Sequence record: OP557970.1
Direction: 5' to 3' (one strand)
DNA length: 64,000 bases
From: Escherichia phage ph0021
The position numbers and the translations under genes were made by a program. Every line of letters starts with the position of its first letter. The stretch's first letter is position 1. A model generated the notes under the pieces. The model was not told the DNA's origin. It ran no database searches and saw only the letters and a program-made list of their open reading frames with translations. This document shows, piece by piece, positions 13,963-34,509 of the stretch.

Positions 13963-16140
13963 TTAGGCCGCAAGGGCCTTCATAGTTTTAGCGATTTGAG
14001 AAACTTCATCATCACTTAAAGAGTTGCGATAACCGATGAAGTCGGAAACAATACGGAATTTCTTGGTAAACTCAGCAACCATTTTATCACTGTTTTTTGA
14101 AGCATTATTTGACAATACATCAAAAAGATTAGTTACTGTCCAGATGTCATGACCAATGGTATCTTTTCCACCATTAAAATATACACCGCGCAATGAACTA
14201 ACTATATTAGCGAGTCGTGTATATTCTTCAGAAACTTCATCTGTACTGAAGTACTTCATCATAAAATCTAACTCAGGATACTTGATAATTTTATCAATAT
14301 ATCGTTGAGCTGAACTTGAATAACCTACGTACTTATCATAATCTACATCATCAAAAGCATCTACATATAAATCACGCAAAGCTTCAAAAATACACTGGCA
14401 CTGACCGAGTTCTTTTACCTTTTTCTGTAAAAGCGGACGAATAACATAAAATTCATTAATGCCAATAAGATTAGCCATACGAATCAAAATATTCATAGAT
14501 GGATGACAAAGAGATGTAGTACCATCCATAGAGAAAATATCAGAACGATGCATATACGCTACATAACCAGTAATTTCATCTGCTTCTGATGTGAGCGTAA
14601 ATAATTCCTCTTTTTCCCAGCGCCCGTCTTTAATTTCAAACTTAAATGCTGTAGCAGCTTTAGGACGAGGAGCTTTACTTTTAACTACCTTTGGAATATA
14701 GCTTTTAACTAAAGCTTCGATTTCTGACAAATAATGAATGTTAACTTCATCACTTTCAAACATCGCCATAATATCAGGGAGTAAATCAATCTGCGATTCT
14801 ACTTCTGGGTTAATAAACAGAAGGCGTTCGTTATGATGAATATTCAAAGTGTTATTAAATTCACTATCATCTAACGCTCGTGCTAATCCACGAACAATAT
14901 TAACACGATTTTTAATATTATCAATAACGATATTAATTTTTGTTGTATTAATACCAAACAGACGATAACTTGATGCAACGGCTGAAGTTTCATGACTTTG
15001 CTTAATGCGTTTCAGTCGAGGGTCAAGATTTACTTCATACACAACTCCTGCATTGCATAACTTACTATCAGGTTCAAACATGCTTTGCATCTTTTTATAT
15101 GACAGATTTTTAGTCGTGAATTTAACTGAATTACTAATCATATAATCTCGAGCAGAATACCCCATCTTCATCAATTCACGATATGTGTGACGAGGAGATG
15201 TGGATTCTTTAAATCGTTTTACATCTTCATTAAATGCTTTCTCACTGAGTTCTTTAACTCGTTCAATAATATTTTTACGAGTACGATCATCCAGTGAAAG
15301 AGCCTCGCGAGATGGAGCAATATCAAGTGAACCCATTGGAAACTTAATGTAATTCACTTCATTGCGAATGCTTAGCCAGTTACGGTCTCTAATAACACCA
15401 TCGATAGGATAAACAATACCGCCATAGATAGCATATAATCCACCACGATCAGGCCAGTATCTTTCTGGATTTACACCGTAATAGTCATCAAAATCCGGAA
15501 AATAATCAATTTCGCGGTCAAGACCATTAATGATAGCCAAATCTTTGAATGGTCGCATGATATAAGAAACTTCATAAGCAAAGTTTCTAAAGTCTTTTTC
15601 TTCAACTGGAACTACGATTTCAATACCAGTTTTATCATCTGGACCCATTTCTTTTACGAATGTAGGTTTAATCTGTGGACCATCACCATCCATGTAAGCT
15701 ACATAACCACGAATTTCGCCTTTATGATATGAAGTAATACTAAATGTATCAGTATAACTAAACGGAGATTTAGAACCTAAACCAAATCCACCAATGAAAT
15801 CGTTAGATTCAGCCTTAGATGAACTAAAGTATGAATTATACAACCCAGGAGAATTATCATCACCCTGAATATCAAAATCGCTCATACCTGGACCAAAATC
15901 ACGACAAACAAATCGCGGATCTAATCGTCCTGGAACTTGAATGATAAATTTTTCAGGATTTCCATTGAGAGCATGGGCATCAATCATATTGGTAATCAAT
16001 TCACGGACTACTGCGCGAATCTTGTTTGTATACAAATCAGATGACAGAATTTTAAATACTTTAGGAGATGCTGTGATGCTAAATGCTTTTGATTTAGAAC
16101 CATTGCCAAGAATTGTTTCTTTTTCAGTGGTGATAATCAT
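13963..16140 (-). CDS. rIIA: rIIA protein
   Basis: 725 aa, length matches T4 rIIA; N-terminal GHKL-ATPase-like region. Confidence 0.9.
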
Positions 16141-16150
16141 AATTTCCTCA

Positions 16151-16354
16151 TTAATTCATATTGCGTTTAATAACTTCAGCGACTTCTAGTAGTTCATCTT
16201 TAGTTGCAGTGTCAGATTGAATTTTATCTCTAATATCCTTAAAGCGGTTTTTAAACTCTTCAGCTTCTCCCATATCGAAAAAGCGTTGAATGATTCTATA
16301 TTCTCGATGAACTGCTTTATCAAAAAGTTCTAAATTTACTTTATATGATTTCAT
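16151..16354 (-). CDS. hypothetical protein (rIIA.1 position)
   Basis: 67 aa ORF between 39 and rIIA. Confidence 0.5.
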
Positions 16355-16379
16355 TTCAATATCCTCATTTGCCCAATTA

Positions 16380-16409
16380 ATTATACCACATCCTTGTGGT
16401 AAAGTAAAC
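16380..16409 (-). promoter_or_regulatory. T4 early-type promoter (GTTTAC / TATAAT)
   Basis: GTTTAC-18nt-TATAAT; spacer holds palindrome CCACAAGGATGTGG; overlaps 3' end of gene 39. Confidence 0.65.
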
Positions 16410-18229
16410 TACTGGCTCATCCATTCTTTACGAAGGTCAGCATTATCTCCCATGAGCATTTCAAAAAGCTCTTTCCAATTCTCAGGAAGTTTAACAACAT
16501 CATATACTGGGTTTTGAATCATCTCACGATATTCAGATTTTTCCAAAGAGCCAAGTCCTTTAATATAACGGATGCTATGTTTAGGTAGAGCATCTTTGGC
16601 ACTCTCATATTCAGCGACTGTATAAAACCATTCTTGTTTTTTACCAATTTGAGCGATGATTACAGGAGTTTTGACAAAACGAATTCGTCCTTGCTCAAAC
16701 AATTCTGGCCAATTACTAAAAAATCCGAGCAAAGAAGGATAAATGCTTCCTAGACCATCATGGTCGGCATCAGTCATAATAGCAATATTATGATAATTTA
16801 AGTTTTCAGCCTTTTCACCGAGAACTAATCCAGTGATTGCGCAAATATCAAATAGTTCTTTGTTTTTAAGCATATCTGCATAAGACATACCCCAACTGTT
16901 GAGAACTTTACCGCGCAATGGATAACCACCGTGAAGTTCTTTATCACGAACATCAATAAGATATCCGATAGCCGAATCACCCTCAGTTAAGAATAGTGTA
17001 GTGTCAGCATCTTTACCGCAAAGATTCGCTTTAATATGTTTATGAACCTTAGCTTTAGAAGCCTTTTTAGCTGCTTTAGTTTCTGCTGCTTTTTCTGCTG
17101 CCAATTTACGGGCCAAGGCAGCTTCAATAATCGGCATTAAAATTGCTTCATTATTTAGAATAGCGCGTGAAATCTTTTTAGCATCAAGTTGAATATGACT
17201 ACGAATTTCGCCAAATGGAGAAGTCAAACGCTCTTTAGTTTGAGAATCAAATCGCATGTTTTTCATATCACGGACAAACATAACGATAGTCAAACATTCT
17301 TTGACACGTGCTTTAGTCACATCAATTTTGAACTTACGTTTGATTTGCGGAATAAGGTCTTCACAAATATCATCCATAACACAGTCAATGTGATGGCCAC
17401 CATTCTTAGTGTGAATGTTATTGACGTATGTTAATTGACGAAAACCATCCGGTGAACGACCAACCGCAATAGAACAATTTTCTTGTTCTTGAACAATAGC
17501 ATGCTCATCATATTGGCGTGCATATTTCTTAAAATTGCCCTGAACCTTTTTACCATTAAAGGTAAATTGAATATCAGGATAAACTACTGCAAGTGTCTGG
17601 AGACGATCTAGTGTAATGTCAAGATAAACTTGAGATAGCTCATTAGTTTCAAATGACATAAAATCAGGAATGAAAGTAACACGTGTTCCTTTCCATTTTC
17701 CAGGAATATCTTCCCATGATTTATTTTCCATACCATTTGAACAACGAACTACAATATTATTTTGACCGTCGCCAGTTTCACCAACAAACATCACAGAAAA
17801 AATGTTTGTCAAACTAGAACCAACACCGTTCATACCGCCAGTGACGCGTTCTTTATCATCACCGAAGTTACCACCTGCTTTTGGAATAGTCCATGCAGCA
17901 ACAGGACCAGGAATTTCTTCACCGGTAGGTGTTTTGACCATCGCTTGTGGAATACCACGACCGTTATCTTCAACTGTTACTTGATTGTTTTTAATAGTAA
18001 CATTAATTTTATTCGCGAATTTAAACTTAGTACGAATACCTTCATCTACTGAGTTATCGATAATTTCATCAATAAGCTTAACAAGACCAGGTACATACTG
18101 AACACTTTCCCATTTACCAAACAGAAAGCGCTCATGCATTTCATTAGCAGAAGAGCCAATGTACATGCCACTACGCTTTTTGATATGTTCAATATCGCTC
18201 AGAATTTTAATTTCATTCTTAATCATCAC
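16409..18229 (-). CDS. 39: DNA topoisomerase II large subunit gp39 (GyrB-like), unsplit form
   Basis: 606 aa continuous ORF with GyrB ATPase/Toprim sequence; no gene 60 interruption. Confidence 0.9.
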   Translation of the reverse strand: MMIKNEIKILSDIEHIKKRSGMYIGSSANEMHERFLFGKWESVQYVPGLVKLIDEIIDNSVDEGIRTKFKFANKINVTIKNNQVTVEDNGRGIPQAMVKTPTGEEIPGPVAAWTIPKAGGNFGDDKERVTGGMNGVGSSLTNIFSVMFVGETGDGQNNIVVRCSNGMENKSWEDIPGKWKGTRVTFIPDFMSFETNELSQVYLDITLDRLQTLAVVYPDIQFTFNGKKVQGNFKKYARQYDEHAIVQEQENCSIAVGRSPDGFRQLTYVNNIHTKNGGHHIDCVMDDICEDLIPQIKRKFKIDVTKARVKECLTIVMFVRDMKNMRFDSQTKERLTSPFGEIRSHIQLDAKKISRAILNNEAILMPIIEAALARKLAAEKAAETKAAKKASKAKVHKHIKANLCGKDADTTLFLTEGDSAIGYLIDVRDKELHGGYPLRGKVLNSWGMSYADMLKNKELFDICAITGLVLGEKAENLNYHNIAIMTDADHDGLGSIYPSLLGFFSNWPELFEQGRIRFVKTPVIIAQIGKKQEWFYTVAEYESAKDALPKHSIRYIKGLGSLEKSEYREMIQNPVYDVVKLPENWKELFEMLMGDNADLRKEWMSQ

Positions 18230-18253
18230 TTATCCTCGTTTGGTTTCGGGAAT

Positions 18254-18283
18254 ATTATACTCCGGTAATCATAAAGCTAAAGG
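18254..18283 (-). promoter_or_regulatory. candidate middle-type promoter upstream of gene 39 (AGCTTTA box, 12 nt, TATAAT)
   Basis: Minus strand TTTAGCTTTATGATTACCGGAGTATAAT directly after terminator hairpin. Confidence 0.4.
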
Positions 18284-18294
18284 CCCGAAGGCCT
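18281..18294 (-). terminator. AGGCC-CGAA-GGCCT hairpin
   Basis: Perfect 5 bp stem immediately after stop of upstream ORF. Confidence 0.5.
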
Positions 18295-18295
18295 T

Positions 18296-18556
18296 TTATT
18301 TAAAACGAATAGTTGAATCCTTAAAGAACAGTCCAGAACATACTGTTCCTTCTACTTTCTGCCCAGTAGGTCCAATAGCACGAAATCCAGTATGTTGGAA
18401 ATCATTTTCAGAGCAACCGAACCAGTTATATCCAGTGATTTCAATATTAGTAAAACCGCTTGAAGACAAAACTTTGGTTGCATTATCAGCATCAGTACAT
18501 CCTACTAAAGACACTACTAATACTAATGCTGCAATAGAACGATTAATATATTTCAT
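18296..18556 (-). CDS. putative lipoprotein (39.1 position)
   Basis: 86 aa, signal peptide with lipobox LVGC. Confidence 0.55.
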   Translation of the reverse strand: MKYINRSIAALVLVVSLVGCTDADNATKVLSSSGFTNIEITGYNWFGCSENDFQHTGFRAIGPTGQKVEGTVCSGLFFKDSTIRFK

Positions 18557-18559
18557 AAT

Positions 18560-18736
18560 TACCCTTTAAGCAAGTCGTAAAATCCGCCATTCACATGCTT
18601 AGGAGCGGAAACTAACCGAATAGCAATCCGATGACAATCAGGACATACATCAGTATCCCTTTCAGAAATTTTCTTGATTTTTTCATATTCATGTCCGCAA
18701 TCTTCGGATTGGCATTTATAATCATACATTGGCATA
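18560..18736 (-). CDS. small zinc-ribbon protein (58 aa)
   Basis: CxxC...CxxC pattern (MPMYDYKCQSEDCGHEYE...CPDCH); read by hand. Confidence 0.45.
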
Positions 18737-18737
18737 A

Positions 18738-19157
18738 TTATTCCTTAAAGTGTGCTTTCAACATCTGATACAAGGACCATGCTTGTTCATTATTTTCAAT
18801 AATAACTTTCATGATCGGGAATTCTGTGAAATCTTCTATTTGTTCTTGCTCTTCCTGCTCTTGTTCTTCAGCTGCCTGATATGGATTTTCCACTTCATTA
18901 AAGAACTCAGCTTCGCTCGTTGAAAGCCAAATAAAATCTTCATCCAAAATATCTTTACCGGAGGATAACGCCAATCTTCCAGTAGATGTCACAATTTTAG
19001 TAGGACGACCAAGATGGTCAATATCTATAACTTTAAAAGGTTCCATACCTAAACGCCGCGCATAGATTCCGTTATCAGTATGGTCTTTAATAAAATTTTC
19101 TTGAGCTTGTTTATTTTTAAATTGATACCATTTATTAACTTCGAATTTAATAGCCAT
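18738..19157 (-). CDS. hypothetical protein (goF position)
   Basis: 139 aa, acidic EQEQEEQEQ tract. Confidence 0.5.
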
Positions 19158-19375
19158 TAATAAATTTCCTTCCAGTAAGTTGTGCCATCTTCAGTAATTT
19201 CACGAAATACACCGTAAATTGGTTGTTTATCCCCAACCTTTTCATACACATAAACCGAAGTCAAGTGAGTAAACTTAGCAGTGTGTTCCTTTTGAACTAC
19301 TACCAAATCTGGATCGAATAATACATCTTCAAATTCATCATTAGTGCAATTCTGAACAATTTTACGTTTCATCAT
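19157..19375 (-). CDS. hypothetical protein (cef position)
   Basis: 72 aa ORF. Confidence 0.5.
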
Positions 19376-19473
19376 AATTTCCTCATTAATTGAACATTGG
19401 AGCGATGCGTTTCAGAAGAGTATCAGCGCACCTTTAACGAATTATCCATTTTATTCTTCAAGTTGTTTTCTGT

Positions 19474-19516
19474 ATCAGTAGTTGATATTGATATAGTACC
19501 ATAATCAACTACTGAT
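19474..19516 (-). promoter_or_regulatory. promoter-like -10/leader element flanked by 13 bp perfect inverted repeat
   Basis: ATCAGTAGTTGAT ... ATCAACTACTGAT arms around TACTAT; no GTTTAC -35. Confidence 0.4.
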
Positions 19517-19546
19517 GTATATAGTTTTATGAAAAAATTTTAAACT

Positions 19547-20038
19547 TTATGCATAGCGAGCTTTGCTGTAGTGTTTAATCCAACTTTCAGGAATGACTTT
19601 GTATGTTCCTAAAAATACCGCGTTGTATAACTTAACGCCATCTTCTACCCATTGATCAGTAATGTATGCACACATAGCGCGAGTACGCTGAGGAAGTGGT
19701 TGTCCACCTTCGGTAAATTCAAACTCATAAGGAGCAATGAACTTGATAGCTTGACCAAGTTTCCACTTAAAGTCTACACCTACATGCGAAGTATCAATCG
19801 TTTCAATTCCTTTAGCAGGAACAGCTTTCAAAAACGCAGGCTCAAGAAATTTCCATCGAACATAACCAAACTGGGGCTTAGACATTCCATCTTTAGCAAT
19901 GATACGTACTTTTACTTCAGAATCTTCATCTTTAACACCGTGTTTAAGCTGAATGCTTACAACTTCGACCAATTTTCCTGCTGCTTTAGAACGGGATTTA
20001 TCAGATACACGAGCAATTTCACCGATATTAATATTCAT
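19547..20038 (-). CDS. MotB-like protein
   Basis: 163 aa at T4 motB position; paralog of adjacent 182 aa ORF. Confidence 0.5.
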   Translation of the reverse strand: MNINIGEIARVSDKSRSKAAGKLVEVVSIQLKHGVKDEDSEVKVRIIAKDGMSKPQFGYVRWKFLEPAFLKAVPAKGIETIDTSHVGVDFKWKLGQAIKFIAPYEFEFTEGGQPLPQRTRAMCAYITDQWVEDGVKLYNAVFLGTYKVIPESWIKHYSKARYA

Positions 20039-20082
20039 AATTATCTCTCACTTGTTAAAAAGATTTTATACTCCACAGGACC

Positions 20083-20112
20083 ATTATACTCTGGTCCCAA
20101 GAGTTTGTAAAC
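20083..20112 (-). promoter_or_regulatory. T4 early-type promoter (GTTTAC / TATAAT)
   Basis: GTTTAC-18nt-TATAAT upstream of motB-like gene. Confidence 0.65.
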
Positions 20113-20660
20113 TAGCTTACACGAACATTAATCACTGCGCTACGAGGAACTACAGAGTATTCTCCAGCATGAACTACGTTCAGAAGTTCAACACCATCTT
20201 CAATCCACTGGTCTGTTACCCAACCACAGATAGGATTATCAAAAGGACGACGGATAGACACAGCAGCACACAACAAGTCTGTAGGGTCTTGTTCTTCAAC
20301 TTCTTGGAACAGGATGAACTCATCTTCATAAACCAGGTTTTTCTTTATTTTGTTATTATCTAACCGGCGACCGTGGATGACGTAAGATTTGTCAAACCAC
20401 TCACTTTTGGCAAATTCTTCAACAATAAATTCGCCTTCGCCAAAAACATCAGTCAGAGTTTTATGACCAGAAATCAAGGCATTAGTTTTAATTTTAGGTT
20501 CAACCAGTTTGTAGGTTTTGCCGATTTCAATAGCGGTAGTCATAGTAGTTTCCTTAATTTCCAGTGGTTTAACAGGGCATACATAAGTGCTTACAACATC
20601 AAAATCAATCAGTTTAGCTACTGGATTTGGTGTGTATTCAGGATTATAATTAAATTTCAT
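20112..20660 (-). CDS. hypothetical protein, paralog of MotB-like protein
   Basis: 182 aa; C-terminal VTDQWIEDGVELLNVVHAGEYSVVP aligns with ITDQWVEDGVKLYNAVFLGTYKVIP in neighbour. Confidence 0.55.
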   Translation of the reverse strand: MKFNYNPEYTPNPVAKLIDFDVVSTYVCPVKPLEIKETTMTTAIEIGKTYKLVEPKIKTNALISGHKTLTDVFGEGEFIVEEFAKSEWFDKSYVIHGRRLDNNKIKKNLVYEDEFILFQEVEEQDPTDLLCAAVSIRRPFDNPICGWVTDQWIEDGVELLNVVHAGEYSVVPRSAVINVRVS

Positions 20661-20662
20661 AA

Positions 20663-21163
20663 TTATCTCATTTCAATAAAATCTACGAGTTCAGCATGGG
20701 ATTTACGGAACATTACTTGATGTCCACCAATGATAACTTCATCTTCAGGAACTTCATATACAGCGAGATAAAATCCTTTAGAAGCTAATTCTTCACGCTC
20801 TTCTCGTGTGAACCATCTCATCATATCATATTCACTAGCGAAAGCAAAATGATAAAGACCTATAAACCATCCGGGAATATGATATTCTACTCCAACATAA
20901 TCTTTCTTGAACTTAGTATTAATTACTATATTAGCGTTTTTAACTAATAGTTTATCTTCGTGCGGTAAAGGAATTCTTTTATTATTATCGCTATGATGCA
21001 TAAAATTAGGTCTGTCATAACCTACGTGTAATAGCCACTCTTCGCTCCATGAATCTATTATACTCCTGTACGGCGTTATTTGAACACAAAGATTTCGACG
21101 TATTGTTATAGCATCTTCATAATCAAGAATACTAAACGATGATTCAACACGATAAATTTTCAT
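20663..21163 (-). CDS. hypothetical protein
   Basis: 166 aa ORF. Confidence 0.55.
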   Translation of the reverse strand: MKIYRVESSFSILDYEDAITIRRNLCVQITPYRSIIDSWSEEWLLHVGYDRPNFMHHSDNNKRIPLPHEDKLLVKNANIVINTKFKKDYVGVEYHIPGWFIGLYHFAFASEYDMMRWFTREEREELASKGFYLAVYEVPEDEVIIGGHQVMFRKSHAELVDFIEMR

Positions 21164-21191
21164 TTTATTATCCTCGGTTAGCTATGGTGTT

Positions 21192-21221
21192 ATAATACCA
21201 TAACTAACCGAGGAAGTAAAC
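21192..21221 (-). promoter_or_regulatory. T4 early-type promoter (GTTTAC / TATTAT) inside long palindrome
   Basis: GTTTAC-18nt-TATTAT; flanked by inverted repeat TCCTCGGTTAG/CTAACCGAGGA. Confidence 0.6.
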
Positions 21222-21227
21222 AACTTT

Positions 21228-21911
21228 TTATCGTTTAGTTGGAAGAGATAGAGGATCGCATTCTTCCTCTGATGGAGCGTCTTCAAGACCCATAGCATAC
21301 CGCAAAGCATACTTCATCATCAGGATGTCTTTCGCACAGTCATGAATGGAATCATGTGCAACAAATCCATCCAAGGTTCCTTTTGGAAGAGGACATGTGG
21401 TCATATCACGAACGAGTAGAAGTGCTTCAATTCTGGTACGAATATCACGCTGATTCCAGAATTTACATGGTTCTAACTTAAATGTGTCAAGTTCATTCTC
21501 AGAAACGCCATTAAAACGTTGAATATCGCGAATGAGATCGACTAAAATTGGAAAATCAAACGACATTCCACGGCACCAGCCTTGAGATTTCCAAGGATCG
21601 ATATTATGCGCATTGATGTAATCATTAAATTTTGCAATACCGTCAATAGTGCTTACATCTTCATCGGATGGTGCAATATTTTTTCTAGCTTCAGGGGATT
21701 GATTCTTCCACCATTCGATAGTGCTTTTAGTAAAAAGACGATGTCCTTTTTGGCTTTTTAAATCAAATTTGATTTTAATGCCGCGTGAAACTAATTCATC
21801 AAATGTTTCAACTACTTCTGGGTTAGGGTCAAAAGCAATTACAGCTAAATCAATAACAGCTGCTTTTTCACCGCTTCCCATTGTTTCAAAATCTATAATA
21901 AAATCAAACAT
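21228..21911 (-). CDS. dexA: exonuclease A DexA
   Basis: 227 aa, DEDD exonuclease-like N-terminus (FDFETMG), matches T4 DexA length and order. Confidence 0.85.
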   Translation of the reverse strand: MFDFIIDFETMGSGEKAAVIDLAVIAFDPNPEVVETFDELVSRGIKIKFDLKSQKGHRLFTKSTIEWWKNQSPEARKNIAPSDEDVSTIDGIAKFNDYINAHNIDPWKSQGWCRGMSFDFPILVDLIRDIQRFNGVSENELDTFKLEPCKFWNQRDIRTRIEALLLVRDMTTCPLPKGTLDGFVAHDSIHDCAKDILMMKYALRYAMGLEDAPSEEECDPLSLPTKR

Positions 21912-22186
21912 TAAATTTTCCTCGCTAAATCACGAATTTGGCCTACAGTATAATCTTGAATATAAACTATATTAATAGGTTCATCAATAAATTTTGCCAT
22001 AGATTCAATATCTTTTTGTATTTCTTCAAGACTGTATATTATCTTTAAAGCTTTTTCGCGAATAGTAACATTATCAGGTCCTGGATTTTCCTCAATGACA
22101 GCTTTGACATTTGTCATAAGAGATTTAAACTGATGCAAACTTAATTCAATCATTAATAATCGCCTTATAAAGATGGCTAATTTCAC
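21911..22186 (-). CDS. hypothetical protein, member of small tandem paralog set
   Basis: 91 aa; shares LEEIxxDL...DYxxGxI pattern with next ORF. Confidence 0.5.
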   Translation of the reverse strand: MKLAIFIRRLLMIELSLHQFKSLMTNVKAVIEENPGPDNVTIREKALKIIYSLEEIQKDIESMAKFIDEPINIVYIQDYTVGQIRDLARKI

Positions 22187-22406
22187 CTAAAACATAATCA
22201 CTGATTGTAACAGTTTTTACTTCACCACAAAAGAATTCTAACGCAATCAAATCTCGTTCAATTTCTTCCAATTGAAGCATTAACTTGCCTGATTCAGTTT
22301 TCACATTTTTGCGATTTTTGCTATAAGCTATTTCATAAATTTCGCTTATTTTATCTTGAAGAAGATAAAACTGATCTTTAGTTATTTCCACGAATAGCTT
22401 CCTCAA
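22146..22406 (-). CDS. hypothetical protein, member of small tandem paralog set
   Basis: 86 aa. Confidence 0.5.
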   Translation of the reverse strand: MRKLFVEITKDQFYLLQDKISEIYEIAYSKNRKNVKTESGKLMLQLEEIERDLIALEFFCGEVKTVTISDYVLGEISHLYKAIIND

Positions 22407-22638
22407 ATTTAATCAATAATTTACAGACGCTTTCATCTAATGTAATTACCGTATCTGTATTACTATGATATGATTGTTTTTCAATTCGTTTAATTGCTAA
22501 TATAGTATCACTTATAAGATAAAGCTTATGAAGCAGCTCAGCTCCTGTTACCATAACATTAAGATTATCTTGCTTATTAGTATGCTTCCTTATACCATCT
22601 ATTAAACGATTTAAATATTTTGAATTGATGTTAATCAT
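22378..22638 (-). CDS. hypothetical protein (dda.1 position)
   Basis: 86 aa. Confidence 0.5.
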   Translation of the reverse strand: MININSKYLNRLIDGIRKHTNKQDNLNVMVTGAELLHKLYLISDTILAIKRIEKQSYHSNTDTVITLDESVCKLLIKFEEAIRGNN

Positions 22639-22644
22639 ATATCC

Positions 22645-23964
22645 TCACACATAAAATACGTCATAACGACCACGGGTAACACCAACATAAAGAAGTTGTT
22701 GAGCCAATTCAGCATCTGCATAATGAATACAAGGCGTATAGATGAAAGCACGATCTACAGACATACCCTGAGCTTTATGGAATGTTGATGCAGGAAGTGC
22801 TTTCACTTTACTAAACTGTGATTTAGCATCCCAAAAATCACTCCACGGAGCTTTTCCGCCTTTATTCCAGTTCTTATAAGTTTCTGCCGTTTTACCTAAA
22901 AATAGGTTAAACTTATATAGCTCTTCATCAGATGAAATTATTTTAATCTTTTCGCGATAATATTCATCATCGCCGTAAGTTTCTACTGTTAAATCCCAAT
23001 GACGAATTAAGTATTCTCCAGGAACACCACGAGCTTTAACAAATGTTGATGTATATTCTGCTTCTATAATACGAACTAATTGTCCATTATTAAAAATAAT
23101 TTCTGACACAGGCTTTCCATCAATTTTATATGTTTTAATTAATGGTTCCTGCATTACAATAATTTCACCGACAATAAAATCTTTATCAGTTTCAAAAATC
23201 TTTTTACGAATAATGCTATTTAACTTGTCAACAGATTTATTCGTAAATGCCATTACGCGATTTTCAAACAAATCATCTAGAGATTTGACGATTGAAAAAT
23301 AATTTACCATAAAATCGCGTAAAGCGGTATCACCAGTAAATCCACGTACTCCATGCCCGTCAACAATTTTATCATAAATCCACTTACCGTTACGAACGTC
23401 AGTAGCTACATCAATAATAGGAGCATTACTGCGTTTAACTTCAGTGAGTTCACACTGATAAAAATCTTTATGTGTAAAGAATGGACTGATATAAGCAGTG
23501 TTTTCTCCTGGGTCAACAGGTCTAATTTGCTTATTATCACCTATTCCAATTATAGTACACCACGGCGGGATAGTTGAAAGCAGAATTTTAAATAGCTTTC
23601 TATCATACATTGACACTTCGTCACAGATTAATACCCTGCATTTAGCTAAATCTGGTACTTCCTTCTGTTCAAAAAGAACATTTTCTTCATATGTTACTGG
23701 GTTAATTTTAAGAATACTATGAATAGTACTCGCTTCTTTTCCTGATAGTTTTGAAAGAATCTTTTTAGCTGCATGAGTAGGAGCTGCTAAAATAATACCA
23801 GTTTCACCTGTAGATATTAGGGCTTCAATAATAAACTTAGTAAGAGTAGTCTTACCGGTACCAGCAGGTCCATTAATAGTTACATGATGTTTCTTTTCTT
23901 TAATAGCCTTCATAACGATGTTAAAGGCATTTTTCTGGCCTTCGGTCAAATCATCAAATGTCAT
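22645..23964 (-). CDS. dda: DNA helicase Dda (SF1B)
   Basis: 439 aa, Walker A GPAGTGKT, matches remembered T4 Dda. Confidence 0.9.
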   Translation of the reverse strand: MTFDDLTEGQKNAFNIVMKAIKEKKHHVTINGPAGTGKTTLTKFIIEALISTGETGIILAAPTHAAKKILSKLSGKEASTIHSILKINPVTYEENVLFEQKEVPDLAKCRVLICDEVSMYDRKLFKILLSTIPPWCTIIGIGDNKQIRPVDPGENTAYISPFFTHKDFYQCELTEVKRSNAPIIDVATDVRNGKWIYDKIVDGHGVRGFTGDTALRDFMVNYFSIVKSLDDLFENRVMAFTNKSVDKLNSIIRKKIFETDKDFIVGEIIVMQEPLIKTYKIDGKPVSEIIFNNGQLVRIIEAEYTSTFVKARGVPGEYLIRHWDLTVETYGDDEYYREKIKIISSDEELYKFNLFLGKTAETYKNWNKGGKAPWSDFWDAKSQFSKVKALPASTFHKAQGMSVDRAFIYTPCIHYADAELAQQLLYVGVTRGRYDVFYV

Positions 23965-24272
23965 CGTAAATTCCCTGCAATTGGTATACTAACAATACGC
24001 CCAGTATCTAAAATTCGCTGATATAATCTTTGTGTGTCTACGTCAGGCTTAACATGTTTAACTTCTATTTTATTAAACCAAAACTTGCGTGGAGTCTCAA
24101 CTAATCTTGGAATTCCCTTACCTAAAGCTAATCGATACTGCTCTTTAAGAGTAGTAAATACTTTATCAGCAATATTCCATTCAAAAAATACAGCAGGACG
24201 ATGTTCATCAAGCGGAACTGGCGCCGTAAATCCGTCTTTGTCTCGGTAAACTATCGCATATACATAAACCAT
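23961..24272 (-). CDS. hypothetical protein
   Basis: 103 aa, overlaps dda start by 4 nt. Confidence 0.5.
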   Translation of the reverse strand: MVYVYAIVYRDKDGFTAPVPLDEHRPAVFFEWNIADKVFTTLKEQYRLALGKGIPRLVETPRKFWFNKIEVKHVKPDVDTQRLYQRILDTGRIVSIPIAGNLR

Positions 24273-28823: not shown

Positions 28824-29033
28824 TTAAATTACATGATTATTTATAATAAATTCTCGCGGAACGTTAAAATACCCGATTTTAGTTAATATAACAACATCAC
28901 CGTTAATAATTACCGGAGAATAATCTTCTGGAGCATTAAATTTCCAATGGGCTCTAATATTATATCCATCAGAACCAAATGCTCGAGTAGCCGGTCTCCC
29001 GGCTTTTTGCCACGCGTAGAAATCAAATTTCAT
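28824..29033 (-). CDS. hypothetical protein
   Basis: 69 aa ORF between 56 and soc. Confidence 0.45.
   Translation of the reverse strand: MKFDFYAWQKAGRPATRAFGSDGYNIRAHWKFNAPEDYSPVIINGDVVILTKIGYFNVPREFIINNHVI
28838..28845 (-). promoter_or_regulatory. late promoter TATAAATA
   Basis: Exact TATAAATA on minus strand about 30 nt upstream of soc ATG. Confidence 0.6.
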
Positions 29034-29743: not shown

Positions 29744-30394
29744 TTATTTTTCCTTTCTTATGAAGTTTTCTATCATATGTCTATAGCAGATATTAGGATA
29801 ACCTGCCTTGACAGCTATTTTATTAAATTTTGTGCGCTTAGGTCTATTATTATAAACCCATAATTCATAAAGCGCATCATAACTATTCCATATTTCTCCT
29901 CGCCTAGGATTTGGTAAACCATATCGAGGTGAATTTTTACCGCTAAATCTTCCTTTTCGGGCTTTACTCATATTAGCCTTGGCTTCATCGGATATAATTT
30001 TACCTTTATGAGCTAGACGCATTTTGGCTTTAGTTTCTTCTGGGGTCTTTTTGCCTTTAATCCATGACGGCTTGCCATATCTAGGATTATTTTCACCCGA
30101 GAAAAGAACAGAGTTTTGGATTTTAAGGGTTTCTATTAATCTACTTGTTAATTTAACACCTTTATTATATCGCATTAAATTTACAGCATAATGCAATCCT
30201 CTCACATCTGGATATATTTTAGTTAATAATCTATGAGCTATAAAATGCTCACGCGCAGTTAACTCAACAAGATTGTTTTTGTCATCTGCTCCTCCTATAC
30301 ATCTAGGAATTATATGATGACGTTCTTTATATCCGCCAAGATGCCGGCATTTAGCTTTTGTAATTAAAGCCGAGTAAATTTTTTGGTAATTCAC
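29744..30394 (-). CDS. HNH homing endonuclease with NUMOD3-like repeats
   Basis: 216 aa; HHIIPRCIGG...NLVELTAREHFIAH HNH motif; two GxNxPRYG / KxKMxxAxKG repeats; GTG start after SD AAAGGA. Confidence 0.75.
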   Translation of the reverse strand: MNYQKIYSALITKAKCRHLGGYKERHHIIPRCIGGADDKNNLVELTAREHFIAHRLLTKIYPDVRGLHYAVNLMRYNKGVKLTSRLIETLKIQNSVLFSGENNPRYGKPSWIKGKKTPEETKAKMRLAHKGKIISDEAKANMSKARKGRFSGKNSPRYGLPNPRRGEIWNSYDALYELWVYNNRPKRTKFNKIAVKAGYPNICYRHMIENFIRKEK

Positions 30395-30464: not shown

Positions 30465-30665
30465 ATGGTACAAAAATTAATGGCACTTGTTGATGCCATA
30501 AAAGGTAATAAAAAACGTATAGCTTTTACTATTTCTGCTATGGTAGGAATTTTACTCTGGAACTTTATTTTATCACCCATTGCAATTGCACATGGTATTA
30601 ATATTCCAGTAGTTACTCTTGATACATTCGTAGATTTAGCATTTGCTTTAGTTGGGTTAATTTAA
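30465..30665 (+). CDS. small hydrophobic protein (66 aa), opposite strand to surrounding operon
   Basis: ATG with strong SD AAGGAGG 6 nt upstream; two hydrophobic segments; stop abuts gene 61 stop. Confidence 0.45.
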   Translation: MVQKLMALVDAIKGNKKRIAFTISAMVGILLWNFILSPIAIAHGINIPVVTLDTFVDLAFALVGLI

Positions 30666-31690
30666 ATCTTAGCATATTTAGATAACCGCATTTTAGCCAT
30701 CAACCCCTGTGCAATATTATTTTTCATATATTCCATAATTTGTTCAGGGGTTGCACCTTCCTTTCTAATCATATCATTAACATCTTTTGATTTCCAGGGA
30801 GATTTATCCCAAAACATAACTCTTTCTCCTGCATCAACTAATTTAGTCATTCGCTTGATAGTGTCAGGATGACGAGGTTCATTATCTAAAACCCACACTC
30901 GTCTATCTTTAAATGGAACAACTTCTAGGTCTAATTGACCACCCGTAATAGCTATACCATTTTCAATAAAAAGCGAATCTATAGGTCCTTCTAGAACATA
31001 TACATCACCATCTTTAACTCGTTCGACTCCATATATTTTTGTTGCCTCAGGATAAGCTTTAATGGTGATATATTTTTGAGGAGCATCTTTCTTTAATGCA
31101 CGTCCTTGAAAAGACTCAGCTTTTCCATTAGCATTATAAATTGGAATAACAAGACGAGGCTCAGGTATTTCCTTTTTATATGTTCCCGGTGCTATGCTAT
31201 TAACTAATTTAGGCCATTCGGTTGTAAACCAAAGATATTTCCATTTATCCTTTGGAATACAACGAGCTTTTACATATTTTATAATTGGATGGTCTTCCGC
31301 CAGTTTATCTAATCTAACACATGACGGAAGAGATTTAATTATTTTCTTCTCAGGTTGTTTAGGAAGTTCTTTAGGTTTTTCTACTGGACGACTTTTACCT
31401 TTTTCTTTTCTTATTTCAAAGATATACTCACGATATAAATCAGGTTCAAACTCCTTTAAATATATTCCGATTGGTGCATGATAGTTACAGTTATAACAAT
31501 GAATATTTCCTTCATTATTATCGCCATAATACCATCCACGGGCTTTATTTTGGTCGGTTTTTGAATCTCCACAAACAGGGCATCTAAACCGCAATTTAAA
31601 AGTTGAACTATTATTTACTTGTGTGAATTTAGGTAAATGAGCTAATGCACGGTATGCAAACTCATTATCAATCCAAGGTATTGATGACAT
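30662..31690 (-). CDS. 61: DNA primase gp61
   Basis: 342 aa, zinc-ribbon CPVCG...CYNC and Toprim region; length matches T4 gp61. Confidence 0.9.
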   Translation of the reverse strand: MSSIPWIDNEFAYRALAHLPKFTQVNNSSTFKLRFRCPVCGDSKTDQNKARGWYYGDNNEGNIHCYNCNYHAPIGIYLKEFEPDLYREYIFEIRKEKGKSRPVEKPKELPKQPEKKIIKSLPSCVRLDKLAEDHPIIKYVKARCIPKDKWKYLWFTTEWPKLVNSIAPGTYKKEIPEPRLVIPIYNANGKAESFQGRALKKDAPQKYITIKAYPEATKIYGVERVKDGDVYVLEGPIDSLFIENGIAITGGQLDLEVVPFKDRRVWVLDNEPRHPDTIKRMTKLVDAGERVMFWDKSPWKSKDVNDMIRKEGATPEQIMEYMKNNIAQGLMAKMRLSKYAKI

Positions 31691-31692
31691 TT

Positions 31693-31857
31693 TTACTCTT
31701 CTTTTTCTTTAGATTCCTCTTTTTTCTTTTTAGGAATCTGTTCAGGACCTTTATTTACTACAGCGCCTGACGTTGTTCCAGTAGAGATATTTTCAGGATT
31801 ACCACCTGAATCTCCAGCTACCATATCTTCTTTAATAAATTCTTTATATGTTTTCAT
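31693..31857 (-). CDS. small hypothetical protein (61.1 position)
   Basis: About 54 aa, Lys/Glu-rich C-terminus; read by hand. Confidence 0.4.
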   Translation of the reverse strand: MKTYKEFIKEDMVAGDSGGNPENISTGTTSGAVVNKGPEQIPKKKKEESKEKEE

Positions 31858-31858
31858 A

Positions 31859-32215
31859 TTAACCTCTATTCATAAAAGCATTAAAAATTTGGTCATCAAT
31901 AGATGGTGCAGTAATATTTTCTGCATCATTTAGCAAATCATTAATTTCATCAGATAGCATAACACATGTACCTTTATTTCCTGTAATTGTTACTGCGCAA
32001 TTACGAACGTTTTCTTTATTAAATTTTAGGTTAATATTTTCGTAGTGAAAATCCTTTAATGCTGAATATATTTTTAAAATAAAATTGTCTTTTACTACAA
32101 TAAACCCAACCTCACTATTAAAACGTGGTTCATGGAAACTGTAATAAACCTTTTCATCTATAAAATCGTATGAAATTTTTTCCATTTTTAAATATGAAAA
32201 TTCAGAACTATACAT
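31859..32215 (-). CDS. hypothetical protein (61.2 position)
   Basis: 118 aa ORF. Confidence 0.55.
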   Translation of the reverse strand: MYSSEFSYLKMEKISYDFIDEKVYYSFHEPRFNSEVGFIVVKDNFILKIYSALKDFHYENINLKFNKENVRNCAVTITGNKGTCVMLSDEINDLLNDAENITAPSIDDQIFNAFMNRG

Positions 32216-32227
32216 ATTAACCTCTAA

Positions 32228-32521
32228 TTACTCACCTACCACTTCAGCGATAATATTTTTATTATTAAAGTTTTTATCGCAATACAGAACATAATTATAC
32301 TGCATTACACCACCAGACTTAAGCTGTTTTTGCACTTCGGCTTTCATTTCAGGACGATCACGCTCAACGATATTCATAATATCCGCTTCAATTTGAGTTT
32401 CAACTTCAGTCTGATCCGCAGTCATAGACCATTCACACAAATCTTTATCATATCCTGCCATAGCAGGCTGAGCAGCACAAGAAGCCAAAGCAAAAATTGT
32501 AGCAAAGATAAATTTTTTCAT
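32228..32521 (-). CDS. sp: periplasmic protein Spackle (superinfection exclusion)
   Basis: 97 aa with cleavable signal peptide MKKFIFATIFALASCAAQPAMA; position between 61 and 41. Confidence 0.6.
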   Translation of the reverse strand: MKKFIFATIFALASCAAQPAMAGYDKDLCEWSMTADQTEVETQIEADIMNIVERDRPEMKAEVQKQLKSGGVMQYNYVLYCDKNFNNKNIIAEVVGE

Positions 32522-32581
32522 GATAATCTCCTCAGTAGTTTATGTTTATATAGTATCTCAATTTCCAATAAAAGTAAACAG

Positions 32582-32881
32582 TTATTTTAAAACTTCTGCG
32601 TAATCACATGTTACAAACTGTTTCTCTAGCTTAACGATCTTACGAAAATACCTTTTACACTGACGAATCTGCCTCTTCGTAGGGCGAACAGCAAACTTAA
32701 TAAATTCCACTCGACCAAATGGAGGGTTTTCTTCTGCTGGAATATCTAACACCAATTCCCACGTATCTGCAATAAGTGCTTTGAATTGCGTATTTTTCCT
32801 GACGTTATACGGAGTAGGTTTAAATAAAACAATATGCATATTATCCTCGGCAATCCACTTCACACACTTTCTTGTCATCAA
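32582..32881 (-). CDS. hypothetical protein (61.4 position)
   Basis: 99 aa, basic. Confidence 0.5.
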   Translation of the reverse strand: MMTRKCVKWIAEDNMHIVLFKPTPYNVRKNTQFKALIADTWELVLDIPAEENPPFGRVEFIKFAVRPTKRQIRQCKRYFRKIVKLEKQFVTCDYAEVLK

Positions 32882-33023
32882 TGAAAGCTTTAACTAATGC
32901 TTTATTAACTTCAGCATATTGAGTAGTAGCCCATTGAACGTCATCTTTCATCATTGTGATTTCTTTAGTAAACATGCTTTCATTCTTAAACCACCCCATA
33001 AAAACTACCTTTACCAATTCCAT
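32841..33023 (-). CDS. dmd: Dmd, inhibitor of host RnlA/LsoA RNase toxins
   Basis: 60 aa ORF immediately downstream of gene 41; length and position match T4 dmd. Confidence 0.6.
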   Translation of the reverse strand: MELVKVVFMGWFKNESMFTKEITMMKDDVQWATTQYAEVNKALVKAFIDDKKVCEVDCRG

Positions 33024-33081
33024 AACAATCTCCTCATTTAACCAACAAGACTACTATACCATAGTCTTGTCAGCTTGTAAA

Positions 33082-34509
33082 CTAAAATTTTAATTCATTT
33101 GCCAAAGCATCTAACTGAGCTCGTGTGGATTCATTTCTTTGATAACGATTCTGCTCAGCCTGAATCTGTTGTGAACCTGCTACTTCGTTCACTTCAGTTG
33201 GAGTAGAATCTTGTTCAATTTCTACCCATTTCTGATTTCCCTTTTGAACACCCATCAAAAACTTATTCCATTTGTTCTTATCACCATATCGTGATTTGAT
33301 TTGCTTAATGAGTTGTTGTTCAGCAGCTGCTAGCTCCTCGGTTTCAATGACCGCAAGCATAAAATCGGCTGTTGCTGGAAGACCAGCAGATTCTGCAATA
33401 TCGCTCATGTTAACATCAGAAGAATCCCAAGCTTGTTTACCAACCTGTGCTGCAGTCCAAAGAACAGTTTCGGTTTCAACAGCCAGAGCACGCAATTCCT
33501 CTGCAATAGCTTTAACAGTTGTGTAACTATTTTCTGAATAAACTCTAATGCGGCAAGATTTACAAATACCTAGATAGTCGACAATAATGATTGTTGGAAC
33601 AAAATTCTTCTTGAGCTTTAATTCATTTAAAAGTGATCGAAATGTATTAGCGTCTGCTCCACCAGTAGGATATTGCTTAACGATTAAACGACCGAGAGTA
33701 GATTTCTCACGCCATTTTTCCATTTTTCCTTTATACTCAGTGTAAGAAATATGTCCATCATCAATGTCATCAAGAGAAACATCAAGCATATTAGCATCAA
33801 TACGCTTAGCACAGACTTCTTCTGCCATTTCCATGGAAATATAAAGAACATTATGTCCGAGCTGTAAATAATCTGCCGCTAATGAACACAATCCTAATGA
33901 TTTACCAACGTTAACGCCAGCCATTAAAACGTTCAGTGTTCCAGTTTCAGCTCCGCCTTTCGTAATTTTGTTTAGAATTCTGAGTTTAAATGGAACCTTA
34001 CGAGCTTTATTCATATAAGATAGCCAACGTGCTTCATAGTCATCCATCCAATCATGGCCAACGTAGCTATCAAATGAAATTGATAATGCTTGGCGCATGA
34101 TGTCAGGAATAGCACCTACATCTGGCATTTTCTTATTTCGTTTTTCTGGAGGAAGCTCAGCATTGGTTTGAATTTCGATTATTTTAGACGTAGCATTAAA
34201 CATCGCCCTTTGCTGAACATATTTTTCTGTTTCTTTTATTAACCAACTGTGGTCTTCTGGAGAATCAGCTAGTTTTGAAATAAGTGTTTTTACACCAGAA
34301 TATTCTGTTTCAGTAAATGAACTATTTTCTAATGCAACATTTAACGCATTAATAGATGGAACGCTATGGTACTCATTAACATGAGATTTAATTAATTTGA
34401 ATGTATTTTTAGCTGGACCACTTTCAAAATATTCTGAATCCATATATGGCCAAACTTTTGAAAAATAAGCTTGATCAAATATGAGATGAGAAAGAATAAT
34501 TTCTACCAC
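33082..34509 (-). CDS. 41: replicative DNA helicase gp41 (DnaB-like)
   Basis: 475 aa, Walker A GVNVGKS, matches T4 gp41 length. Confidence 0.9.
   Translation of the reverse strand: MVEIILSHLIFDQAYFSKVWPYMDSEYFESGPAKNTFKLIKSHVNEYHSVPSINALNVALENSSFTETEYSGVKTLISKLADSPEDHSWLIKETEKYVQQRAMFNATSKIIEIQTNAELPPEKRNKKMPDVGAIPDIMRQALSISFDSYVGHDWMDDYEARWLSYMNKARKVPFKLRILNKITKGGAETGTLNVLMAGVNVGKSLGLCSLAADYLQLGHNVLYISMEMAEEVCAKRIDANMLDVSLDDIDDGHISYTEYKGKMEKWREKSTLGRLIVKQYPTGGADANTFRSLLNELKLKKNFVPTIIIVDYLGICKSCRIRVYSENSYTTVKAIAEELRALAVETETVLWTAAQVGKQAWDSSDVNMSDIAESAGLPATADFMLAVIETEELAAAEQQLIKQIKSRYGDKNKWNKFLMGVQKGNQKWVEIEQDSTPTEVNEVAGSQQIQAEQNRYQRNESTRAQLDALANELKF

Follow-up and report, generated by a model that had tools for sequence, protein, structure and literature searches.

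What do the small genes lying between the primase gene 61 and the helicase gene 41 of Escherichia phage ph0021 contribute to infection, and are those among them without an assigned function further inhibitors of host toxins? The question is examined here in a stretch of 64,000 nucleotides (nt) of this phage (sequence record OP557970.1; hereafter the window), in which an earlier note, made from the letters alone, had pointed to five small open reading frames (ORFs) at positions 31693-33023. We find that the interval is very probably a Tequatrovirus early-gene island serving counter-defence and exclusion, a reading that takes in the roles proposed below for its 118-residue protein and for gp61.1. 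The locus is a textbook T-even region whose counter-defence role was published in 2022 and, taken whole, it adds no new biology; apparently only the anatomy of gp61.1, in which a leader is joined to a copy of the gp23 cleavage site, is new.

Five early genes between gene 41 and gene 61

The window is a segment of a Tequatrovirus (T4/T2-like) genome. Positions 31600-33100 were matched by 509 phage records, the region being 95-100% identical in about 500 phage genomes; identity was 100% with 'Pseudomonas phage PsgM02F' (OR584013), 99.7% with phage FL08 and 98% with T2. All genes of the interval lie on the minus strand, in the order 41 - dmd - tifA - sp - 118-residue gene - 61.1 - 61, between gene 41 (33082-34509, 475 residues) and gene 61 (30662-31690, 342 residues). 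This order is that of the T4 map, the size of the 61.2 gene being the sole departure. A GAGG-type ribosome-binding site stands 5-8 nt ahead of the ATG of each of the five genes, and the spacers measure 1-60 nt. The ratio of nonsynonymous to synonymous substitution rates (dN/dS), taken pairwise among the window, T4, AR1 and phiD1, is about 0-0.2 for all five genes, from small counts. All five ORFs are real genes, so that the earlier description of five small ORFs between genes 61 and 41 is confirmed in its coordinates and supported by ribosome-binding sites, conservation and low dN/dS. Neither T4 AdfA nor the five proteins match an NCBIfam model, and a search of the interval for intrinsic terminators found none.

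An early-type sigma-70 promoter (33053-33081, minus strand; TTTACA-17-TGnTATAGT, 10/12 matches plus a TG extension) is located upstream of dmd and would drive dmd and tifA, as the early promoter upstream of dmd does for dmd and 61.4 in T4 (PMC9391042). Srikant, Guegler & Laub 2022 (eLife, PMC9391042) wrote that the interval 'may be an anti-TA island' (TA, toxin-antitoxin) and described neighbours as 'attractive anti-toxin candidates'; the same work gives T4 61.2 as adfA, an anti-DarT gene. The idea of the earlier note that this T-even interval is a hotspot of counter-defence and exclusion is thus upheld, but had already been published (PMC9391042).

Identity of dmd, tifA and sp

The comparisons made here establish the identities of the genes; for Dmd, TifA, Spackle and AdfA, function has been demonstrated in the literature. 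The product of dmd (61.5; 32841-33023, minus strand; 60 residues) is 100% identical to T4 Dmd, matches PF17587 over positions 1-60/60 (E 1.6e-46) and aligns with the PDB chain 5hy3_B, 'Antitoxin Dmd', at E 1.8e-37, in agreement with its previous description as a 60-residue Dmd-like protein. On the strength of this full identity to the characterised T4 protein, Dmd of the window is expected to block the RnlA and LsoA RNase toxins by binding them.

The second gene, tifA (61.4; 32582-32839, minus strand), encodes 85 residues, 83 of which are the same as in T4 gp61.4 (98%; the two differences are N37S and V83I), and scores 74.3 bits against DUF7279 (PF23945; cut-off 24.5). Its ATG lies 1 nt past the dmd stop, and it is co-operonic with dmd behind the early promoter. 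A 99-residue ORF opening with TTG (32582-32881), which overlaps dmd, is an over-extended version of this gene. We place the tifA start at the ATG at 32839 because it is preceded by a GAGGA ribosome-binding site, because the PHROG profile begins at residue 15 of the 99-residue ORF, because 61.4 is annotated as 85 residues in T4, phiD1 and PsgM02F, and because deleting the ATG of T4 tifA abolishes function (PMC9391042). The ORF region singled out as a 99-residue frame without assignable function is therefore real, but the true gene has 85 codons and was already assigned, as tifA.

In T4, escape from ToxIN occurred by amplification of dmd-tifA, and expressing TifA by itself was enough to restore plaquing and gave partial rescue from ToxN toxicity; the function requires translation, withstands recoding of the mRNA, and TifA co-immunoprecipitates with ToxN (PMC9391042). 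The tifA of the window, 98% identical, probably encodes the same inhibitor of the ToxN endoribonuclease and would likewise act by binding. A PDB sequence search with TifA returned no meaningful match.

The third gene, sp (61.3; 32228-32521, minus strand), encodes Spackle, a protein of 97 residues, 96 of which are the same as in T4 Sp (99%), with a match to PF25676 over positions 1-96/96 (E 1.3e-44). It carries a 22-residue signal peptide of the Sec type, MKKFIFATIFALASCAAQPAMA|G. Matches in the PDB are 6x6o, 6xc0 and 6xc1, and the mature chain of 7cn6 begins at residue 23, which fits the predicted signal peptide. The earlier identification of a Spackle-like periplasmic protein with a signal peptide is borne out by the near-identity to T4 Sp and the full-length family match. 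By homology, Spackle would be secreted to the periplasm and there block the gp5 tail lysozyme of superinfecting phages, which is superinfection exclusion.

A short relative of AdfA in the slot after sp

The slot between sp and 61.1 is filled by a variable array of proteins ending in DDQIFNAFMNRG. In the window, it is occupied by a T2-type gene, 61.2-short (31859-32215, minus strand), whose 118-residue product is related to the C-terminal half of AdfA. Aligned with T4 DNA, the region is near-identical as far as the sp stop and once more over the last 14 codons of this gene and beyond, and unalignable between. These last codons (31862-31903, minus strand) encode the C-terminal motif SIDDQIFNAFMNRG, are identical in the DNA of T4 adfA, and at their end also hold the ribosome-binding site of 61.1.

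The 118-residue protein is 34% identical to T4 AdfA residues 109-208, the last 14 residues being the same in both. It scores 32.2 bits against the Pfam AdfA family (PF23813; cut-off 27), over profile positions 113-211 only, and most of this score comes from the 14 identical residues. With the motif removed, BLASTP against AdfA gave E 0.006, and 18/2000 shuffles reached the observed score; alignment of the short against the long forms by hhalign gave a probability of 97% when the motif was included; when it was left out, the register was unchanged and P=0.0016.

Several observations weigh against counting this protein as an AdfA. First, the AdfA proteins of T4, AR1 and RB69 score 390-457 bits over profile positions 1-211, against 32 bits here, and the full-length architecture (about 210 residues, whole profile) is absent. 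Secondly, a relative in VR25, 45% identical to the 118-residue protein, falls below the threshold at 22.5 bits. Thirdly, neutralisation of DarT1 is decided by one residue: active alleles have His, and RB69 AdfA, which is inactive, has R164 (PMC11257639). Both RB69 R164 and T4 H165 were confirmed in the sequences, and this position (His165 in T4, residue 164 in RB69) aligns to Asn72 (MAFFT) or Cys73 (BLAST) of the 118-residue protein. Finally, T2 has been treated as 'naturally lacking an adfA homolog' and resists DarTG1 via AdfN (gp30.3) (PMC11257639). Membership of the AdfA family appears marginal; counted in this way, two of the three ORFs once listed as unassigned would fall in named anti-toxin families, TifA firmly and AdfA marginally.

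The arrangement in other phages indicates how the short and long genes are related. T4 has only the long gene, and T2 and the phage studied here only the short one. In AR1, the two stand in tandem (sp - 210-residue adfA - 118-residue gene - 61.1), and phiD1 presents the array sp - adfA - 118-residue gene - partial copy - 118-residue gene - 61.1, with two identical 118-residue copies in a segmental duplication. Since AR1 and phiD1 carry it alongside a full-length adfA, the 118-residue gene is, judged by its sequence, a short paralogue and not an adfA allele. Searches gave 336 phage records for the short type, of which about 293 reach an identity of at least 90%, and 487 for the long type; versions of the 118-residue protein that are 43-47% identical occur in other genera.

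In the Yersinia phage phiD1 (locus L008, 2383-3341), 300 nt are repeated twice and 161 nt three times, with a 33-residue partial ORF between the full copies; one copy contains an ambiguous base, so that an assembly artefact is possible. The duplication may be a natural parallel to the evolved amplification of dmd-tifA, and gives a weak hint of selection on dosage. Near-identical ribosome-binding and start sequences (AGAGGTTAATATG) flank the 118-residue gene in the window (31862-31880 and 32216-32230, minus strand), and this direct repeat could allow the cassette to be lost or gained by microhomology recombination.

Could the ORF be a decaying remnant of recombination in an adfA tandem array, with no function of its own? 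Such an origin would explain the sharp recombination boundaries against T4, one at the sp stop and the other at the last 14 codons, as well as a length half that of AdfA and the missing key histidine. It is nonetheless very improbable, given that the ORF is intact at 118 residues in about 290 genomes (at least 90% identity), that the 43-47% identical versions persist in other genera, and that it has its own ribosome-binding site and coexists with full-length adfA in AR1 and phiD1. Its dN/dS of 0.1-0.2, from small counts, shows purifying selection.

We infer instead that the 118-residue protein binds a toxin and that its specificity is not for DarT1. Like T2, this phage possesses only the short paralogue and no 208-residue DarT1-binding AdfA, and the short form may bind a different toxin or a DarT variant. 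Structure prediction was of little help: the AlphaFold2 model is mediocre (predicted local distance difference test, pLDDT, 64.8; predicted template modelling score, pTM, 0.58) and was built on an alignment of 6 close sequences only. A Foldseek search of the PDB with this model gave nothing below E 0.37, a PDB sequence search found no meaningful match, and a word-index homologue search returned only relatives at an identity of at least 76%.

The C-terminal motif recurs in RB69 AdfA and in a pair of VR25 proteins, one of them an otherwise unrelated protein of 145 residues that ends in it. It seems to be a module shared by the diverse proteins of this slot, although its last codons also hold the ribosome-binding site of the next gene. 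A family sharing the C-terminal DDQIFNAFMNRG, comprising the 208-residue AdfA, the 118-residue short form and the 145-residue VR25 form, with members that occur singly, in tandem or in amplified form, points to a modular scaffold for toxin binding. The view of T2-type phages as simply lacking any adfA relative is also corrected by it.

gp61.1 combines a capsid-targeting-like leader with a copy of the gp23 cleavage site

The last gene before the primase gene, 61.1 (31693-31857, minus strand; phrog_1823), encodes 54 residues that are 96% identical to T4 gp61.1, and would be a gene of a different kind. Its first ten codons (31828-31857, minus strand) encode MKTYKEFIKE, a capsid-targeting-like leader ending I-x-E. 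This leader is identical at 8/10 positions to the MKTYQEFIAE of the T4 internal proteins IPII and IPIII and at 9/10 to RB69ORF124c, and T4 gp61.1 and IPI both begin MKTFKEF. At the DNA level, 22-23 consecutive nt are identical between the 61.1 leader and ip genes, ipIII sharing 23/24 of the first nt. In the window and the other loci compared, the leader is confined to ip-type genes and 61.1, save two looser MKSF... matches in Pantoea phage Phynn. The cleavage consensus of the prohead protease gp21 is L/I-x-E, as reportedly described by Black, Showe & Steven (1994). The capsid-targeting sequence itself is defined: it is cut once by the prohead protease, and proteins fused to it are retained in the head (PMC8442874; PMC3012670), the fusion being sufficient to package foreign proteins (PMC8442874).

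Beyond the leader, codons 4-39 (31741-31848, minus strand) encode a stretch similar to gp23 59-94, which contains the E65|A66 cleavage site and the N-arm of mature gp23*. In a search of the PDB, gp23 was the sole match of gp61.1, at E 0.0085 with the single sequence and at E 1.3e-5 with a profile (residues 3-39 against gp23 58-94). Identity to gp23 is 43% over 37 residues, and the Phynn form aligns over 56 residues. Cleavage by the protease gp21 strips 65 residues from the N-terminus of gp23. Segment 66-105 is disordered inside the unexpanded head, where it is probably in contact with the scaffolding core, and at a later stage gives rise to the N-arm and N-fist (PMC9546572). The gp23-like stretch of gp61.1 spans this cleavage site and the start of the 66-105 segment.

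By tblastn, 61.1 was found in 1432 phage records across Straboviridae, including phages of Klebsiella, Acinetobacter, Aeromonas, Vibrio and Proteus, and its core hardly varies: E-D-M-V-A-G-D-x-G-G...N-I-x-x-G-T-T-x-G...N-K-G-P-E. A profile search of 1.84 billion representatives returned 50 clusters, mostly of proteins of 130-250 residues with the motif near the C-terminus and, in these long homologues, a Lys/Arg-rich tail after it. Whether the homologue is short or long, the gp23-like segment is always preceded by hydrophobic-x-Glu. Pantoea phage Phynn encodes a 165-residue form at the same locus, and the 92-residue RB69 form is intermediate. For the N-terminal domain of the long homologues (130-250 residues), searches found neither a Pfam family nor a counterpart in the window, and it does not resemble the gp68 core protein. 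In a manual count of co-variation, covering two phage pairs only, T4 gp61.1 matches its own gp23 at 14/32 positions and that of Phynn at 12/32, and the Phynn homologue matches at 18/32 and 17/32, a negligible difference. The 'GDSGG' of gp61.1 was considered as a serine-protease motif and rejected, the Ser being Ala in many homologues and the protein only 54 residues long.

The layout of gp61.1 reads as a leader or N-terminal domain, a hydrophobic-x-Glu cleavage site, a mimic of the gp23* N-terminus and a charged tail. We take the protein to be a mimic or fragment of gp23 and not a capsid protein; the database label 'major capsid domain-containing protein' overstates the similarity. This anatomy suggests a head-targeted, protease-processed peptide or a decoy of the capsid protein, and not a toxin inhibitor. 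The reading that we prefer, tentatively and with considerable doubt, makes gp61.1 a hitherto unnoticed part of T4-type head assembly or a mimic of gp23. Recruited to the prohead core, it would be cut by gp21 behind Glu10, and the peptide of about 44 residues so formed would either remain with the DNA for injection, like IPI*, or influence the processing of gp23 or the docking of the scaffold.

This head-targeting or mimic role has several observations against it. The T4 ip genes are downstream of TATAAATA late promoter sites, and no such site is present near 61.1 in the window or in T4 16000-24000. RB69 gp61.1 has no MKTY leader, the product left after cleavage would be tiny, and gp23 did not appear at E<=0.001 in the profile search of 1.8 billion proteins. 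In the literature, gp61.1 is not reported in heads and no functional study was found. Within the whole 64-kb window, TATAAATA occurs once (28838-28845, minus strand) where shuffles predict 10.6 +/- 2.9, a scarcity consistent with a region of early and middle genes that avoids late promoters.

Under a different explanation, the 118-residue protein and gp61.1 would both be further direct inhibitors of toxins of TA or abortive-infection systems, which we regard as a serious possibility, short of probable. Both genes stand in the same island as dmd, tifA and the AdfA slot, both are early-expressed with no late promoter nearby, the tandem 118-residue duplication in phiD1 parallels the amplification of tifA dosage under ToxIN selection (PMC9391042), and the island neighbours have been named as candidates (PMC9391042). 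The conservation of gp61.1 argues in the other direction: its core is almost invariant in the 1432 records, from Escherichia phages to those of Vibrio, Aeromonas and Acinetobacter, whereas host-specific inhibitors are narrower, the 118-residue gene (336 records) and AdfA (487) being found in enterobacterial phages only. Its sequence, moreover, resembles capsid-assembly elements. The proposal that the unassigned ORFs are toxin inhibitors stands for the 99-residue ORF, which is tifA, and is less likely for the 54-residue gp61.1, which is broadly conserved and capsid-like, unlike a fast-evolving inhibitor. Homology to a housekeeping function, which the earlier note had named as evidence to the contrary, is approached by gp61.1 through its similarity to capsid-assembly sequences.

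The similarity to gp23 also admits an early decoy of its N-terminal region, one that would blunt host sensors of the major capsid protein, possibly in complex with elongation factor Tu (EF-Tu), such as Lit/Gol or Avs7-like receptors, or compete for EF-Tu. For EF-Tu to be bound stably, about 100 residues from the first quarter of gp23 are required (PMC3014915), and Avs7 senses the capsid protein together with EF-Tu (PMC13581612). The early expression of 61.1 within a counter-defence island would suit such a role, as would mimicry of gp23 59-94, which abuts the Gol region. We consider it unlikely: the similarity of T-even gp61.1 ends at about residue 94, ahead of the 29-residue Gol core, which probably lies at gp23 ~93-122, and a decoy leaves the capsid-targeting leader and the conserved hydrophobic-x-Glu unexplained. 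As a main explanation of gp61.1, a Lit/Gol decoy was ranked low, the similarity stopping before the Gol core. With a role in the head as a testable hypothesis, gp61.1, which belongs to the handful of small ORFs without assigned function that are conserved throughout the T4 superfamily, gains more than the label 'conserved hypothetical' that it has borne for two decades (it is listed among conserved ORFs without known function by Nolan et al. 2006, PMC1524935).

Plasticity of the interval

Across Tevenvirinae the interval is plastic, as illustrated by VR25 with its two TifA/DUF7279 paralogues and two proteins bearing the DDQIFNAFM motif. This plasticity fits an accessory island for counter-defence and exclusion between the conserved genes 41 and 61. 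The one broadly conserved member of the island is 61.1, which always adjoins the primase gene. In the VR25 locus (L009, 78-2433), alongside the two DUF7279/TifA-like genes, proteins of 145 and 119 residues both end DDQIFNAFMKR(G/D). In RB69 (L012, 2818-5970), imm and imm.1 are inserted beside sp, and there are extra small ORFs and the 92-residue gp61.1.

Flanking genes

Two features were observed downstream of the island. Between genes 56 and 61, at the position of dam in T4, a 216-residue ORF (29744-30394, minus strand) resembles an HNH and NUMOD3 homing endonuclease. No Dam homologue was found in the 64-kb window (best tblastn E 0.3), and identity to T4 DNA is 77% for gene 56 and 97% for gene 61, which suggests a homing or replacement event at the dam site. 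On the plus strand, opposite to all its neighbours, a 66-residue hydrophobic, membrane-like ORF (30465-30665) overlaps the stop of gene 61. The ORF shares 54% identity with RB69ORF029w, which has the same position, and is annotated in PsgM02F; its DNA is 97% identical in T4, where it is unannotated.

Comparison with known systems

With gp23 (residues ~49-101: end of the propeptide, E65|A66, N-arm and N-fist), gp61.1 can be compared over this portion only, as it has no HK97-fold body. With the T4 internal proteins, it has in common an N-terminal leader of about 10 residues, of the capsid-targeting type and ending I-x-E. It differs from them in that cleavage would leave only about 44 residues, in a tail that is mixed Lys/Glu and not clearly basic, and in the location of its gene in the replication and early region instead of the ip locus, with no late promoter.

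The 118-residue protein resembles AdfA (T4 gp61.2 and RB69; PF23813; LeRoux et al. 2022, PMC11257639) in its slot after sp, in the identical C-terminal SIDDQIFNAFMNRG and in a weak, collinear resemblance over the VG-I-VKDN-I strand region, but it is without the entire N-terminal half and the key histidine. The same slot distinguishes the window from the T4 anti-TA island dmd-tifA-sp-adfA-61.1, since the 61.2 position holds the 208-residue adfA in T4 and the 118-residue T2-type gene here. In all other respects compared, the two islands are alike: they share the site between 41 and 61, the gene order and the early promoter, and their Dmd, TifA, Sp and gp61.1 proteins are 96-100% identical.

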